Under the pieces are notes generated by a model, which saw nothing but the letters and a program-made list of their open reading frames with translations, did not search any database and was not told the DNA's origin. Shown in pieces: positions 10,885-63,965 of a stretch of 64,000 bases of DNA. Position numbers and translations under genes: made by a program. The stretch is taken from positions 1-64,000 of the IMG/VR virus record IMGVR_UViG_3300009092_000002. One strand, 5' to 3'. Within the stretch, counting starts at the first letter, position 1; each line of letters opens with the position of its first letter. Source of the stretch: a virus (taxonomy: Duplodnaviria; Caudoviricetes).

Positions 10885-10958
10885 AGCGGGCTGGAAAAAC
10901 GGCAATTCGGGAGTCTCATAAGCTCCAGATCTGGGTTCAACTCCCAGGCCCGCAACCA
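10885..10958 (+). tRNA. tRNA with CAU anticodon (Met-type, initiator-like acceptor mismatch)
   Basis: Cloverleaf: AGCGGGC/GCCCGCA, anticodon arm GGAGT-CTCATAA-GCTCC, T arm CTGGG-TTCAACT-CCCAG, encoded CCA. Confidence 0.9.
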
Positions 10959-10980
10959 AGTTCTCGATACAACCCAACGA

Positions 10981-11057
10981 TGGGGGAGCCAGTCGTTAGC
11001 CCGATGGTCTCGGTTAGCCGAGCGGGTTGCAATGGACGAGGGACGCTCCCCACCCCA
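10981..11057 (+). ncRNA. Putative structured 77-nt RNA between two tRNAs
   Basis: GGGGAGC/GCTCCCC terminal stem, AGCCCG/CGGGTT, CTCGG-TTAG-CCGAG hairpin, ends in CCA. Confidence 0.5.
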
Positions 11058-11071
11058 CGCCCGTGATCCTT

Positions 11072-11145
11072 CGGGATATGGGGTAGTGGTCGCCTCCGAG
11101 TCTTGGGAACTCGTGGCCTCGGTTCGATTCCGAGTATCCCGACCA
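11072..11145 (+). tRNA. tRNA-Pro(UGG)
   Basis: CGGGATA/TATCCCG acceptor, CGAGT-CTTGGGA-ACTCG anticodon arm, CTCGG-TTCGATT-CCGAG T arm, CCA. Confidence 0.92.
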
Positions 11146-11149
11146 AATT

Positions 11150-11857
11150 TCACCGCTTCAGCCCCTGAATAACCGCAGCCGCCCCGTCCACCGGATCTCC
11201 GTGACCAGGACATAGAATCTTCACCCCCGGCAGGTCCGCCAGCTTGTTGATCGAGCGCTGATTGTAGCCCTGATCCAAAGTGAATCCATCCCAAGGGCAC
11301 GGCTTCTTCTCCGGGCCATCTCCGGGCCACGTATTGATGATGTCTCCGCCGAACAGAACTTCCCCAAACAGAAATGCCATATGGCCCTTGGTGTGGCCCG
11401 GTGCGTGAACTACTGTCAGCGGCCCGATGGTGTCGCCATCCTTCAGCGTGCCGTCTACATCACAAGCCACGTGGCCGCCGCGACCGAGAGCTAAGCCGGT
11501 TTGCAGCTTCCAGACCGTGAAATTGTGCGGCCGCTGGCTCCACTTTGGGAATCCGACCCGCTCGGCTTTGCGCTTGCCCCTGATGATGTCGGCCTCCCAA
11601 TCGTGGGCTAGTAGCCGGGCTCCAGTGAGACTGCGAAGATGCGCTGCGCCTGCGATATGGCTGCGGTGCGCGTGCGTCTGTAGAATGATCTTGATCGCGC
11701 CAGGGCCGATTCCTTTGGCCGCAAGTTGGGCGAGCAGGGTCTTGCCGTCGTCCTCGGACAGCGTATCGATGAGGATGCCGTCAGAGGCCAGGAAATAGGC
11801 TCTGACGTGACCGCCAGCGTCGTCGCCGAGCATGTGAATTCCGGGAGGTAGTGGCAT
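11150..11857 (-). CDS. MBL-fold metallo-hydrolase
   Basis: THAHRSH (HxHxDH variant), HAPGHT, GD, CPGHG motifs; start moved to ATG 11857. Confidence 0.85.
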   Translation of the reverse strand: MPLPPGIHMLGDDAGGHVRAYFLASDGILIDTLSEDDGKTLLAQLAAKGIGPGAIKIILQTHAHRSHIAGAAHLRSLTGARLLAHDWEADIIRGKRKAERVGFPKWSQRPHNFTVWKLQTGLALGRGGHVACDVDGTLKDGDTIGPLTVVHAPGHTKGHMAFLFGEVLFGGDIINTWPGDGPEKKPCPWDGFTLDQGYNQRSINKLADLPGVKILCPGHGDPVDGAAAVIQGLKR

Positions 11858-11874
11858 TGTGTTAGAGTGGGGGC

Positions 11875-11989
11875 GTGCTGGCGTCAGCATCGGTGGCGGA
11901 CGTGCAGTTGAGATAGCATCAAGGCGGAAAAATGGTGGTTACGCGGTAATCCAGAAAAGCGTAGAGGGTTCGAATCCCCACGCCAGCAC
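11875..11989 (+). ncRNA. Non-canonical tRNA-like RNA with very long variable arm
   Basis: 10-bp terminal stem GTGCTGGCGT/ACGCCAGCAC, D-like arm, TTGA-GATAGCA-TCAA arm, GGG-TTCGAAT-CCC T arm; extended -10 TGTTAGAGT at 11860-11868. Confidence 0.65.
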
Positions 11990-54956: not shown

Positions 54957-55204
54957 CGCCCCGCCACCTCCAAAATCCCCACGATCTGCCGTGCGATCGC
55001 CCGCGCCTCGGCCTCTTCGCGCTCACGCTGCTCAACGTGCAGCCGGTACAGCCGCCGAAACTCCGGATGCTCGGCCCGGTACTTGATGTAGGCGTCCATA
55101 ATCTGCTGCGGTGTCGCCTCCCGGATCGCCCGGTTGCAGGCGTCCCAGCGCGACTGATCGGCGGCGGCAAGGATGCGCCAGGCGGCTGAGGATTTGTGGG
55201 TCAT
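54953..55204 (-). CDS. Hypothetical protein
   Basis: ATGA-coupled ORF. Confidence 0.6.
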   Translation of the reverse strand: MTHKSSAAWRILAAADQSRWDACNRAIREATPQQIMDAYIKYRAEHPEFRRLYRLHVEQREREEAEARAIARQIVGILEVAGR

Positions 55205-56184
55205 GCGACGGACTCCCGTAGCGCGTTTCGTAGAATTGAAACTACTAGTTTTTCTACCGCTGCTCTCTCTGGTTCGTTTGGCAGTTCCGACTTATCTCGC
55301 GCCGCTCGGCACTCCTCGAACAATCCAGTAGAATGCTCTTTGATTTGGGTTAATGTCCACTTGCCTCGCTTAATATCCAGCAATTCGGCGGCGTCGGTTG
55401 TTCGATATACCTGGAGTTCGCCGGTCTGCATGAATTCTTTACACATTCGGAGAAGGCGAATCAGATGCGCGGCATTCTTGGAATCGTAGCCGTGCTCTAA
55501 AACTAGGCCCTTGCGCTTTTCTCCGAGGTAGCCGATATTCTCGCCCTTCTTCTGATAATGTTTCAGTCGTTGTAGGAGAACGTCCGTACCCCAGTTCGCG
55601 GCATCGCGACTCTCGCCCGTGTCACGTTTGGGTTCCGGAAATACCTCACCTTTGTGGTTCGGGTGAATACCGCGATGCTTCAATTCTGCGGTGACCGCCA
55701 TGTATTCGCGTAACTCGGCAGGGTCCCGGCTCTCCATCTTTTCAAGCTGGGCATGGGCGTATCCAGCGAATGCGTTGTAGACGTGCTTGCCGATAAATAG
55801 ATGGCGGTTTTTGATCAGTTCTTTTGCGGCTCCGCTTTTGAAAAGGTAGTCCTCTTCGCGAAGCCAGAGCGTTCCGAGAATATTCGGGTTGCCCTGAAGG
55901 AGAAGCGACACGGCCTTGCGGAGTTCATAGAATACGCAGTCGTACTGCGCCTCTTTGTATTCCTTCGTGCCGCGCGATCCCCACTCGGACAGTCCTAAAT
56001 AGCACTCCTCCGGCCCGACAACAAACCCCATGAGATCCACGTCGTCAATGGAGTTCGGATCGGTATTCGGAACGTACATGTTGTGCGCAATCGAGCCACG
56101 ATAAGCAAGCAGCATCGTGCCACCTGGGATCTTGCACGCGCCGTCTGGATTCTTCAGATTAAATAGCGACCAATCCTTTACCAT
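55201..56184 (-). CDS. Pol-beta superfamily nucleotidyltransferase (RlaP/PF10127-like)
   Basis: RGSIAH...DDVDL; YELRKAVSLLLQGNPNILGTLW; YDSKNAAHLIRLL. Confidence 0.85.
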   Translation of the reverse strand: MVKDWSLFNLKNPDGACKIPGGTMLLAYRGSIAHNMYVPNTDPNSIDDVDLMGFVVGPEECYLGLSEWGSRGTKEYKEAQYDCVFYELRKAVSLLLQGNPNILGTLWLREEDYLFKSGAAKELIKNRHLFIGKHVYNAFAGYAHAQLEKMESRDPAELREYMAVTAELKHRGIHPNHKGEVFPEPKRDTGESRDAANWGTDVLLQRLKHYQKKGENIGYLGEKRKGLVLEHGYDSKNAAHLIRLLRMCKEFMQTGELQVYRTTDAAELLDIKRGKWTLTQIKEHSTGLFEECRAARDKSELPNEPERAAVEKLVVSILRNALRESVA

Positions 56185-56645
56185 TCCACCTCCAAATTCC
56201 CCCTCATCCACTCAAACGCCTCAACCTCAACCGTAGGCAGCATCGCGGCCCTGACGACTGCAGCGTACCCTCCCAGCGATACCCAGTAAGCGCACTCCCC
56301 CGCAAGCCCCTCCGCGATCGCCAACCGCTCCCGATACTCGCGCACGGGCACCGAGTCCAGCGCCACCCCACTGCGCTCCGCGAGCACGCGCACGGCTTCG
56401 GGGAACGACAGCCCGTCGATAGCCCGGAGGAAGGCGATGGCGTCGCCGGATTTGCCACAGCCGAAACACTTGTAGAATCCGCGGTCGGCGTGGACGCGGA
56501 AGCTGGGCGTCTTCTCGATGTGGAAGCAGCACAGCCCGATGTAGTCTTGCGTGCGCCCGATGCGCTTCAGGCGTACACGTTCGGAGATCAGGGCGAGAAT
56601 GTTGGCGCTGGCTCTGACTTGGGATAGGGCGCTAGGTGCGAACAT
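56178..56645 (-). CDS. Stand-alone CHC2 zinc-finger (DnaG N-terminal domain)
   Basis: GLCCFHIEKTPSF...YKCFGCGKSGDAIAF...LSFPEAVRVLA; no TOPRIM domain follows. Confidence 0.85.
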   Translation of the reverse strand: MFAPSALSQVRASANILALISERVRLKRIGRTQDYIGLCCFHIEKTPSFRVHADRGFYKCFGCGKSGDAIAFLRAIDGLSFPEAVRVLAERSGVALDSVPVREYRERLAIAEGLAGECAYWVSLGGYAAVVRAAMLPTVEVEAFEWMRGNLEVEW

Positions 56646-61665: not shown

Positions 61666-61710
61666 TGGTGAGCCGGGCGGGACTCGAACCCGCGACCCTT
61701 TGATTAAAAG
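61666..61710 (-). other. att core: 3' half of tRNA-Lys(UUU) (attP candidate)
   Basis: Minus strand CTTTTAA-TCAAAGGGTC-GCGGG-TTCGAGT-CCCGC-CCGGCTC-ACCA; begins at the anticodon loop, 5' half absent. Confidence 0.85.
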
Positions 61711-61718
61711 ACAAAATG

Positions 61719-62378
61719 TCACTGGGGTACTTCCTCATTAAACTCAATACTTTGCGATTTAAAAATGGAATTCGAGCGGAGCATTGCGTCAGCAGCCCCA
61801 GTTAGAGGGTAAAAGACGTTGGAAACGTCTGCGGCTGAGGCGTACACGATTTCTCGCCCGTCGATCACCACCGCGAGAACATCGAACTTGCCAACGTTTC
61901 GAGACACGTCGCAGAAGATGGCGCCGGACTGTTCACGGCGACCACTCTTCACCTCAACCTTGACCGTCTTCCAATCGGGGAGAATCACCAGCAGATCGCA
62001 GGGCGCTCCAGGACTCACGGCTTTGTACGGGTGTAGGCCCTTCGCGATCAGATCAGCCGTGACGATCAGCTCGGCAAGAACGCCGCGACTTTGTTTGTCG
62101 ATGCTGTTTTCGGTTGCCGCTTTCCACTCCATCGGCACAATAAAATCGACAGCGGAAATCAGCCGCAGGTTGTCGCGGATCGCGCCCTCGCGCCGCATTA
62201 TGTCGTCCAGCTTGGCGCGCGCCTCCTCTTCGGTAACCTCATCGATCCGACCGAGCATGACGCTTCGTCTGCCATCTTTCGCGCACTTTCCGGTCGCAGT
62301 GAAAAGTCCACGCCACTGATTGCCCTGCTTTGAAACGCAGCCGGTTCTCTTGCGCCCGCGTTTTTTGCGTGTAATCAA
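61719..62378 (-). CDS. PD-(D/E)XK nuclease with integrase-arm-like N-terminus
   Basis: GVLAELIV...PCDLLV...KVEVKSG; N-terminus RKRTGCVSKQGNQWRG...EEEARAKLDDI; likely TTG start 62378 after GGGAGG. Confidence 0.7.
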   Translation of the reverse strand: MITRKKRGRKRTGCVSKQGNQWRGLFTATGKCAKDGRRSVMLGRIDEVTEEEARAKLDDIMRREGAIRDNLRLISAVDFIVPMEWKAATENSIDKQSRGVLAELIVTADLIAKGLHPYKAVSPGAPCDLLVILPDWKTVKVEVKSGRREQSGAIFCDVSRNVGKFDVLAVVIDGREIVYASAADVSNVFYPLTGAADAMLRSNSIFKSQSIEFNEEVPQ

Positions 62379-62578: not shown

Positions 62579-62826
62579 GCAGCATCCTCTTCGGCATAGG
62601 CCGCGCGTGTTTCTTCTCCATAGTTCGGCGGATCATCGACAGCGCCCAAGTGTCCAGATTTCCACTTGTCGCACCGCTGCCTCTCGGTCACATATTTCCC
62701 GGAGAATGGGCCTCCATCGACAAGACACATGGCCTCCACTGGTCCGCCGCCTCGACACTGCGCCACCATCTCGCTCCAGAAGCGACACCCTGCACAATTC
62801 TTTGTTTCACCGTATGTTCTGCTCAA
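62575..62826 (-). CDS. Small Cys-rich protein
   Basis: CAGCRFW...C...C...C; ATGA-coupled to integrase. Confidence 0.6.
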   Translation of the reverse strand: MSRTYGETKNCAGCRFWSEMVAQCRGGGPVEAMCLVDGGPFSGKYVTERQRCDKWKSGHLGAVDDPPNYGEETRAAYAEEDAA

Positions 62827-63965
62827 TTCGGCCTCCCCGTAGCCTTCTCAAGTTGTCCCCGCATTCGCTCTCGACTCGGATGCGTGTACACCGTGCTCAT
62901 TTCCGGCCGATGCCCAAGGATGCGCGACTTCTCCTCGACCGTCATCACCTGGTCCATGTTGGTCGATGCCGTGTGCCGCAGGTTATAGAACGTGAGCCAC
63001 GGCATCCCTACAGCCTTCGCCGCCGGCGTCAGGTAGCGCTTGGCGAGGTTCCCAATACGCAGCGGCTTCCCCACACTGGACACAAACACGGGCGAGTCCG
63101 GTGTGTTGAACTTCGACGCCTCGTAGAGTTCAGTAAAGGCCATCCAGGCGTCCACGGTCAAAGGGATTTCCCGGCGATGCACGTCACGCTTGGGTGATGC
63201 CTTCCAATGCCCGTTCGTGAAGCTCTCCGCGATCCTGATGGTGAAGTTCGGACCCACCAGATCAACGTTGCGCCAGCGCAGCCCGCACGCCTCGCCTGGT
63301 CGCATTCCGGTGAGCGCCAGAACGCGCACGAAACCGCGGTACCGCTCGTCGATCGCAGCGACCAGTAAATCTACCTGGTCTCGCGTGAGCGCCGTTTTCT
63401 CGGGGCGTTTGTACTCGGGGAGTCGGCAGCGTCTTGCGGGATTGCCGGTAGCAAGCCACTCGGCGTCTTCGGCAAGGTGGAAGACGCCAGAAGTAATTGC
63501 TTTAGCGAGATGGGCAGTTCTGAGACCCGCAGCAGTAATCGTTCGTTCCAGCATCCTTTGCACATCGTCCCTCCTGATCTCCGATAATCGCTTGTCGCCC
63601 AGCGCCGGCAGAATGTACCGCTTCAGAATCGACTCGTAGGAATCGCGGGTGTTCTTCTCCTTGCGGTTCAGATGCTCCGGCCGGTACTTGCGCTCGACGA
63701 ATTCGGCAAACGTGGCAGCGCTCGACGGCGTGCGGGTGTTCTGATCCAACCGCGAGAGGTAGGTCTCCCAGGCCTTGCGCCGGGCCTCACGGATGCCGTA
63801 GCCGTCCATCTGGCCGTTCTGTTTTGATGGGCAGACCACGACAGGGGCGCTCCAGCCGCGCTTCAGCTTGCCGTCAGCGCCTACCTGATCCACCTTCCAT
63901 CGAAGCTTCCACCAGCCATTTTGATTGTACAGATCACCTTTTTGCTGTAAACGTCTTCGAGCCAT
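62823..63965 (-). CDS. int: Tyrosine integrase
   Basis: TGMRPGE (R), K in KASPK, YNLRHT (H replaced by Y, then R), ILGH and TVY catalytic Tyr. Confidence 0.93.
   Translation of the reverse strand: MARRRLQQKGDLYNQNGWWKLRWKVDQVGADGKLKRGWSAPVVVCPSKQNGQMDGYGIREARRKAWETYLSRLDQNTRTPSSAATFAEFVERKYRPEHLNRKEKNTRDSYESILKRYILPALGDKRLSEIRRDDVQRMLERTITAAGLRTAHLAKAITSGVFHLAEDAEWLATGNPARRCRLPEYKRPEKTALTRDQVDLLVAAIDERYRGFVRVLALTGMRPGEACGLRWRNVDLVGPNFTIRIAESFTNGHWKASPKRDVHRREIPLTVDAWMAFTELYEASKFNTPDSPVFVSSVGKPLRIGNLAKRYLTPAAKAVGMPWLTFYNLRHTASTNMDQVMTVEEKSRILGHRPEMSTVYTHPSRERMRGQLEKATGRPN

Follow-up and report, generated by a model that had tools for sequence, protein, structure and literature searches.

A degenerate tRNA-like sequence of apparently chimeric make-up in a putative temperate phage of Acidobacteriota

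The described genes that come closest to the sequence reported here are the irregular or inactive allo-tRNA-like genes of Acidobacteria (Mukai et al. 2017, PMC5389517). Some of these are pseudogenes that overlap other genes, are inactive in translation or are carried by phages (PMC5389517). Allo-tRNAs have a long D stem with a tetraloop, a 6-bp anticodon stem, G73 or U73 and a strong likeness to the tRNA-Sec model. Here we describe a tRNA-like element of 115 bases, counted from stem to stem, in a 64,000-nt stretch of viral DNA (hereafter the window). With the allo-tRNA-like genes it has in common the probable host phylum, a long extra region, destabilised stems and odd junctions. It lacks the listed features of allo-tRNAs, and it differs from the allo-tRNA-like genes in that its 5′ third comes from a protein gene. 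We regard the element as a degenerate phage tRNA-like sequence with an unusual chimeric make-up.

Two further kinds of tRNA-related sequence resemble it in part. Host class II tRNAs have an extra region of about 13-20 nt, whereas that of the element measures 42 nt and is accompanied by a non-canonical loop, a broken T-stem base and the lack of a CCA. The tRNA 3′ fragments found at att sites, of which the attP of this phage is one, are like the last ~24 nt of the element (T arm and 3′ acceptor strand). In contrast to such fragments, the element has a complementary 5′ strand (10 bp) and lies far from the integrase gene.

The phage and the position of the element

The window comes from a virus record of 76.5 kb that is complete and has direct terminal repeats. 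Genes for a T4-type terminase, a D5-type primase, a resolvase and a tyrosine integrase are present. In addition, an RlaP-family nucleotidyltransferase, of an RNA-repair-associated Pol-beta family, is encoded between primase-related genes in the replication module (55201-56211, minus strand). Other features of the window are the following.

10885-11145, plus strand: genuine tRNA-Met(CAU) and tRNA-Pro(UGG) genes with encoded CCA, 0.7-1 kb upstream of the element and on the same strand
11150-11857, minus strand: gene for an MBL-fold hydrolase (Pfam Lactamase_B, E = 7e-14), the left border of the slot
61669-61736, minus strand: partial tRNA-Lys(UUU) from the anticodon arm to CCA, likely attP, beside the integrase gene
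62823-63965, minus strand: integrase gene, adjoining the partial tRNA-Lys

The 45-nt 3′ part of attP was found exactly in 41 genome contigs, nearly all of them from Bryobacterales, Bryobacteraceae or Solibacteraceae. Because this part of attP matches Bryobacterales tRNA-Lys genes exactly, we read the window as DNA of a temperate phage of Acidobacteriota (Bryobacterales, soil Acidobacteria).

Two minus-strand genes, one of 124 aa and that of the MBL-fold hydrolase, flank the element, which lies in the 160-nt spacer that separates them. Homologues of the hydrolase with 54% identity occur in related phage contigs. An anti-Pycsar, Apyc1-like identity was considered for this neighbour and dropped, as it came from a weak precomputed match on a 54%-identical homologue; the protein's own Pfam and PDB matches are to generic MBL proteins. 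Among the two upstream tRNAs, tRNA-Met(CAU) (10885-10958, plus strand) has an A1.A72 mismatch and a 3-bp D stem.

Parts of the element and tests against known RNA families

The element and the box in front of it consist of the following parts.

11860-11868, plus strand: extended -10-like box TGTTAGAGT, with a predicted transcription start at about G11875
11875-11884, plus strand: 5′ strand of the 10-bp terminal stem (GU leader, 7-nt acceptor strand GCUGGCG, U8)
11875-11916, plus strand: what remains of a small leaderless protein gene: an open frame of 13 codons that stops at TAG 11914-11916, with homology over 11875-11911
11887-11905, plus strand: D-like arm, GCAU/GUGC stem (11887-11890, 11902-11905) and 11-nt loop with GG
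11907-11923, plus strand: anticodon-like arm of 4 bp and a G.G mismatch, 7-nt loop GAUAGCA with UAG central
11924-11965, plus strand: extra (variable) region of 42 nt, with a weak hairpin TGGTTAC-GCG-GTAATCCA at 11936-11953
11966-11979, plus strand: T arm with a 3-bp stem GGG/CCC (11966-11978), the consensus loop UUCGAAU and an unpaired C
11980-11989, plus strand: 3′ strand of the terminal stem (A65, acceptor strand CGCCAGC, A73, C74), followed by UU

All the motifs named in the first-pass annotation of this DNA (box, 10-bp stem, D-like arm, anticodon-like arm, extra hairpin and T arm) were found at 11860-11989, and its description of a non-canonical tRNA-like sequence without an encoded CCA is borne out. 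The terminal stem (11875-11884/11980-11989) is perfect over 10/10 bp, with pair probabilities of 0.69-1.0. Within the window the exact T-loop word GGTTCGAATCC is unique, and matches with one mismatch are found only in tRNA-Pro and in the attP tRNA-Lys fragment; by arithmetic estimate, ~0.03 exact matches are expected by chance in 128 kb. A perfect 10-nt complement that lies 60-120 nt upstream and adjoins the T-loop word has a chance of ~2e-4, likewise estimated by arithmetic. Correctly placed D-like and anticodon-like hairpins were seen in 0.27% of interiors after shuffling and, across the window, at 0.6% of positions. The combination of motifs at 11860-11989 is far beyond chance, and the observation is real.

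The annotation had also given the RNA its own promoter and a giant variable arm. As to the promoter, the extended -10-like box is present and conserved in the related phage contig L005; as it lacks a -35 hexamer, a promoter scan left the box unflagged. The giant arm was not recovered, as the 42-nt extra region is unstructured and forms no stable arm: its hairpin at 11936-11953 reaches -3 to -4 kcal/mol, with a z-score of ~0 against shuffles and pair probabilities of <=0.03. A fold other than the cloverleaf has the minimum energy (-36.4 against -29.4 kcal/mol), and the z-score for folding of the whole element is only -1.27 compared to shuffles.

With default settings ARAGORN left the element uncalled, and none of its single internal deletions restored a call. 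Relaxed thresholds, a check that the annotation had proposed, gave only implausible alternatives, and no credible call was obtained in intron mode either. The tmRNA mode found nothing at the element at a 70% threshold, and a tmRNA identity was rejected. In a 451-nt search the Rfam tRNA model RF00005 (cut-off 29 bits) gave no match at E <= 10. The tRNA-Sec model RF01852 (cut-off 47 bits; 8/5 branch, 6-bp D stem, UCA anticodon) scored the element at 17.1 bits (E = 1.1), driven by the acceptor and T arms. The only other Rfam match, an unstructured one to RAGATH-32 (13.6 bits), was taken as chance. Host-order tRNA-Sec genes reach 65-81 bits on RF01852 and are unrelated in sequence to the element, so that descent from a host tRNA-Sec was rejected.

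Decoding tRNAs nearly always carry Y32, U33 and R37. In the sequence TTGA-GATAGCA-TCAA (11908-11922) the anticodon-like loop has G32, A33 and C37 instead. Furthermore, of the five T-stem pairs that a 7/5 tRNA would have, the two basal ones are G.A and A.C, so that the T-stem base is broken, and the D-like arm has one surplus nucleotide between U8 and the D stem. Where A-CCA is expected, ACTT stands after the stem; CCA is thus not encoded, unlike in the tRNA-Met and tRNA-Pro of the phage and in the host tRNAs examined. What is kept of a canonical tRNA is an acceptor of 7-10 bp stacked directly on the T arm GGG-UUCGAAU-CCC. The element is tRNA-derived and not a working tRNA: because of G32/A33/C37, the broken T-stem base, the unstructured 42-nt insert and the lack of a CCA it would be unable to decode.

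An allo-tRNA-like identity, which the annotation had proposed beside a new tRNA mimic, failed on the D arm, the anticodon stem, the discriminator and the tRNA-Sec score. The acceptor branch, compared to the 12 bp (8/4 or 9/3) of allo-tRNAs, can be drawn as 8+3 with a bulged C, as 8/4 with an A.C pair, or as 10+3 when the leader pairs are included. The discriminator is A, or C in a 9/3 register, and not the G73 or U73 of allo-tRNAs. The D stem of 4 bp with its 11-nt loop and the anticodon stem of 4 bp are also unlike the long D stem and the lengthened anticodon stem of allo-tRNAs, and the extra region has no stable stem where allo-tRNAs carry a long, paired variable arm. We did not file the element as an allo-tRNA because most of the defining allo-tRNA features are missing. 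A likeness to YrlA RNAs, also raised in the annotation, found no backing either: no Rfam Y RNA model matched at E <= 10, and searches for a Ro60 (TROVE) gene drew a blank in the phage and in three host-order genomes, while the controls matched. A link to Ro60 and Y RNAs was therefore rejected.

Relatives and sources of the ends and of the 5′ third

We searched for relatives of the whole element. BLAST against phage records gave no homologue, and neither did four element-based patterns and a promoter-box pattern in viral contigs, nor one pattern each in genome contigs and in metagenome contigs, yield a true one. All nine pattern matches in metagenome contigs proved to be coding sequence or else tRNAs, ordinary or partial, preceded by a GATAGCAT box. 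Sets of 3, 151 and 301 Bryobacterales genomes, searched by DNA sequence, model and pattern, returned only ordinary tRNAs and a tRNA(UAU) gene. The element is a singleton in all collections searched (viral, metagenome, genome and ~300 host-order genomes).

Through the neighbouring proteins we found the related phage contigs L005, L006 and L007-L009, all of them without the element. L005 has the gene order of this phage, with the tail protein and the MBL protein ~53% identical, and holds a small gene in the slot. There is no slot in L006 or in L007/L008, the latter joining the 124-aa and MBL genes without a spacer, and L009 has a short gap only.

Two side observations concern other contigs. A phage tRNA-like gene at L253:2583-2680 (minus strand), 4 nt from a tRNA-Trp, is also uncalled by ARAGORN and without CCA; its ends read GUGCUGG/CCAGCAC, its T arm has 5 bp and its long central arm contains a UUCG hairpin, and its interior is unrelated to that of the window element. 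In unrelated soil contigs (L010-L014, L017), tRNA genes or partial tRNAs are repeatedly preceded at close range by the word GAGATAGCATC, which may be a -10-type promoter box (TAGCAT).

The ends of the element led back to real tRNA genes. A covariance model (R1) made from the element and the cloverleaf of the annotation was searched in 151 Bryobacterales genomes and matched ordinary tRNAs only. These included tRNA-Thr(UGU) at 30-38 bits, in which the acceptor GCUGGCG/CGCCAGC (positions 3-9 of the element) and the T hairpin are identical to those of the element, and tRNA-Arg and tRNA-Leu(UAG) at ~31 bits. Host tRNA-Leu(UAG) has in common with the element the UAG triplet, A73, C74 and a D-loop block: UGGCGGACGUGC at 11894-11905 (loop and 3′ stem strand) is similar to UGGCAGACGCGC in the host tRNA.

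A search with the 3′ end of the element in 301 Bryobacterales genomes led to a tRNA array of 28-30 genes in one genome (G165). The array holds a 92-nt long-arm tRNA(UAU) (L115:1433-1526), in which the GU leader, acceptor, A73 and C74 are identical to those of the element and the T hairpin is near-identical. A homologue of this gene, ~86% identical, is present in an unrelated phage contig (L257:1390-1483, minus strand). The 5′ sequence GUGCUGGCG and the 3′ sequence CGCCAGCAC of the element are identical in both tRNA(UAU) genes. From these two genes we built a second model (R2), on which its members score 117.8 and 119.7 bits, ordinary tRNAs 25-38 bits and the element 21.1 bits. Membership of the long-arm tRNA(UAU) family was rejected on this score, which lies below those of ordinary tRNAs. 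ARAGORN recognises the family members, which also possess U33 and A37, a T stem of 5 bp, pairing within the variable arm and an encoded CCA; the element has none of these. We considered whether the extra region is homologous to the tRNA(UAU) variable arm and do not claim it, as only a UCCAGA hexamer is common to both, which has an estimated chance of ~7%.

Judged by these comparisons, the element has the ends of a tRNA(UAU) and not its body. The tRNA-type ends (GU leader, GCUGGCG/CGCCAGC, A73, C74 and T hairpin) can be identified, by identity of sequence, as those of the Bryobacterales array and phage tRNA genes. Moreover, the gene order Met, Pro and then the long-arm gene is the same in the G165 array and in this phage. 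The acceptor and T-arm ends of the phage tRNA-Met and tRNA-Pro resemble those of Met and Pro in the array; their middles differ.

The 5′ third points to a different source. L005 matches the box and its flank without a difference over 12 nt; there the box stands 6 nt before the GTG of a leaderless 70-aa gene, the same distance as in the element, and is divergent from the MBL gene. The conservation of the box is ambiguous because it overlaps the 5′ untranslated region of the divergent MBL gene. In an ungapped comparison, nt 1-37 of the element are identical to the start of the small gene at 21/37 positions in L005 and at 20/37 in a second contig, L112 (shuffle p = 1.5e-5). Among 3231 ATG or GTG 37-mers of the window, that of the element is alone at this level. 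Its summed identity to the small-gene starts is 41, compared to a mean of 16.4 and a maximum of 26 for 224 real tRNA 5′ ends. The frame of the small gene is shut in the element after 13 codons by the UAG of the 'anticodon loop'. By these comparisons nt 1-37 are homologous to the small-gene start and the 5′ third is gene-derived, though its first 10 nt are the exact 5′ strand of the tRNA. The word xTGxxxGCGT is common to the tRNA 5′ end and the small-gene start, and the conserved Lys codon AAA of the small-gene family is CTG in the stem of the element, which is exactly what pairing needs. No match was found for the interior beyond nt 1-37 and the ends. The annotation had itself named a degenerating pseudo-tRNA-Leu as the case against its proposal; that case comes close to our result, a degenerate tRNA-like sequence with Leu-type traits, to which is added the 5′ third from a protein gene.

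The small-gene family is real, and its L112 member starts 7 nt past a -10-like hexamer. It comprises proteins of 57-73 aa (MK[AT]SELI...HGDVPV...) from apparently leaderless genes (L005:5771-5983, minus strand; L112:2308-2529, plus strand). These genes run antisense within late operons of phages, and a -10-like hexamer precedes each of them by 6-7 nt. The L112 gene is flanked by an 8-nt direct repeat, AAAGCGTC. In 301 host-order genomes the family gave marginal matches only. A pairing of the ends in the L005 transcript (8/10 pairs, three double changes) was set aside as probable chance, since folding misses it and L112 is without it.

Explanations for the element

Our preferred explanation, to which we give somewhat less than even confidence, is that the element is a chimeric recombination relic of a phage tRNA gene, and that it neither works as a tRNA nor belongs to any described tRNA-like family. 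Versions of an independently transcribed slot, one bearing a tRNA and one bearing the small gene, would have recombined, probably aided by the microhomology xTGxxxGCGT, which offers a plausible joint. The interior of the tRNA would have been replaced, in part by the small-gene start, and the paired ends kept. If the inherited box is a promoter, the product is probably still transcribed, and the transcript could still form the acceptor/T-arm helix and would not decode. Traits that look like decay argue for a relic: the 21 bits on R2, the unstructured extra region and the loss of a CCA that the sibling phage tRNAs encode. Other features count against it. A gene-derived patch within a tRNA gene requires two junctions, phage genomes tend toward quick loss of junk, and the D-like and anticodon-like hairpins have a chance of only 0.3-0.6%. 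Moreover, the change from AAA to CTG suits pairing exactly, and a flawless stem and T hairpin beside a changed interior, T-stem base and CCA would also fit selection on the acceptor/T helix.

The main rival is a co-opted, non-decoding tRNA mimic, a reading that we consider possible and yet doubtful. Transcribed from the slot promoter at G11875, the RNA would titrate a host factor that binds or cuts tRNAs. Its acceptor/T helix and D-loop GG elbow would be handled by RNase P, 3′ trimming enzymes and the CCA-adding enzyme, and it would serve as an uncharged or unusable decoy for, e.g., a defence or toxin-antitoxin nuclease that acts on the anticodon loop or the variable loop. The perfect stem and T hairpin, the putative transcription start on the first stem base and a box-to-start spacing like that of the leaderless genes in L005 and L112 would suit this role, as would the low chance of cloverleaf-like arms, the stem change to CTG and the two genuine tRNAs that adjoin the element. 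There are precedents: in Acidobacteria, allo-tRNA-like genes that are inactive occur close to toxin-antitoxin systems (PMC5389517), a passage of PMC13096335 describes Septu as cutting the variable loop of tRNA-Tyr, and tRNA arrays are proposed as anti-defence systems in a passage of PMC12803027. However, the element is a singleton in the collections searched, folds as a whole no better than shuffles, has an unstructured extra region and scores below real tRNAs under tRNA-type models. In addition, the perfection of the stem, like the other favouring features, could be inherited from the parents, and the conservation of the box might serve the MBL 5′ untranslated region instead. We think it unlikely that a tRNA mimic has just been born here, with the start of a leaderless gene fused to the 3′ end of a tRNA, the change of AAA to CUG restoring the helix, and the expressed look-alike used by the prophage against a tRNA-binding or tRNA-cutting host factor.

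A decoding role seems highly improbable to us. The element would then be either a tRNA-Leu(UAG) of non-canonical build or a suppressor or missense tRNA akin to allo-tRNAs; its acceptor branch would be 8/3-8/4 and its variable arm very long. [quoted passage not shown] Against it stand G32, A33 and C37, the 3-bp T stem, the surplus nucleotide after U8, the lack of a stable variable stem and of a CCA, the failure of ARAGORN and the Rfam tRNA model to call it, the 17 bits on tRNA-Sec, a D arm and an anticodon stem unlike those of allo-tRNAs, and the gene-derived 5′ third. Improbable as well is a role on the minus strand, where the tRNA likeness would be incidental and the region would act in the late-operon mRNA as a large stem-loop or weak terminator, a processing or stability element. 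The region is indeed the 160-nt spacer between two minus-strand genes, its minus-strand fold has a z-score of -1.82 (5/200 shuffles fold equally well), and a hairpin is followed by CCAUUUUUCC on that strand. This hairpin, however, reaches only -3 kcal/mol, and a terminator was rejected as too weak; L007/L008 have both genes without the spacer, the T-loop consensus reads correctly on the plus strand only, and Rfam searches of the minus strand were empty.

If the element is a relic, as we prefer, it offers a small case study of recombination between phage accessory-gene slots and tRNA genes, and a warning that a convincing hand-drawn cloverleaf can conceal a gene fragment. If its RNA proves both stable and active, we would have here an orphan tRNA mimic of Bryobacterales phages, an almost unstudied group, and one that bears on tRNA-cutting defences and on the tRNA-based counter-measures of phages. 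A newborn mimic would be a rare case of the origin of a tRNA-like regulatory RNA caught in the act.

The tRNA(UAU) common to the host array and a phage is maybe the more useful lead and may belong with the allo-tRNA(UAU) genes of Acidobacteria. The genes of L115 and L257 have a tRNA-Sec-like short D loop, A.C/A.A mismatches beside the anticodon loop and a paired variable arm, and this long-arm tRNA(UAU) is possibly of the allo-tRNA(UAU) type of Mukai 2017. The G165 array also contains an odd tRNA-Cys(ACA).
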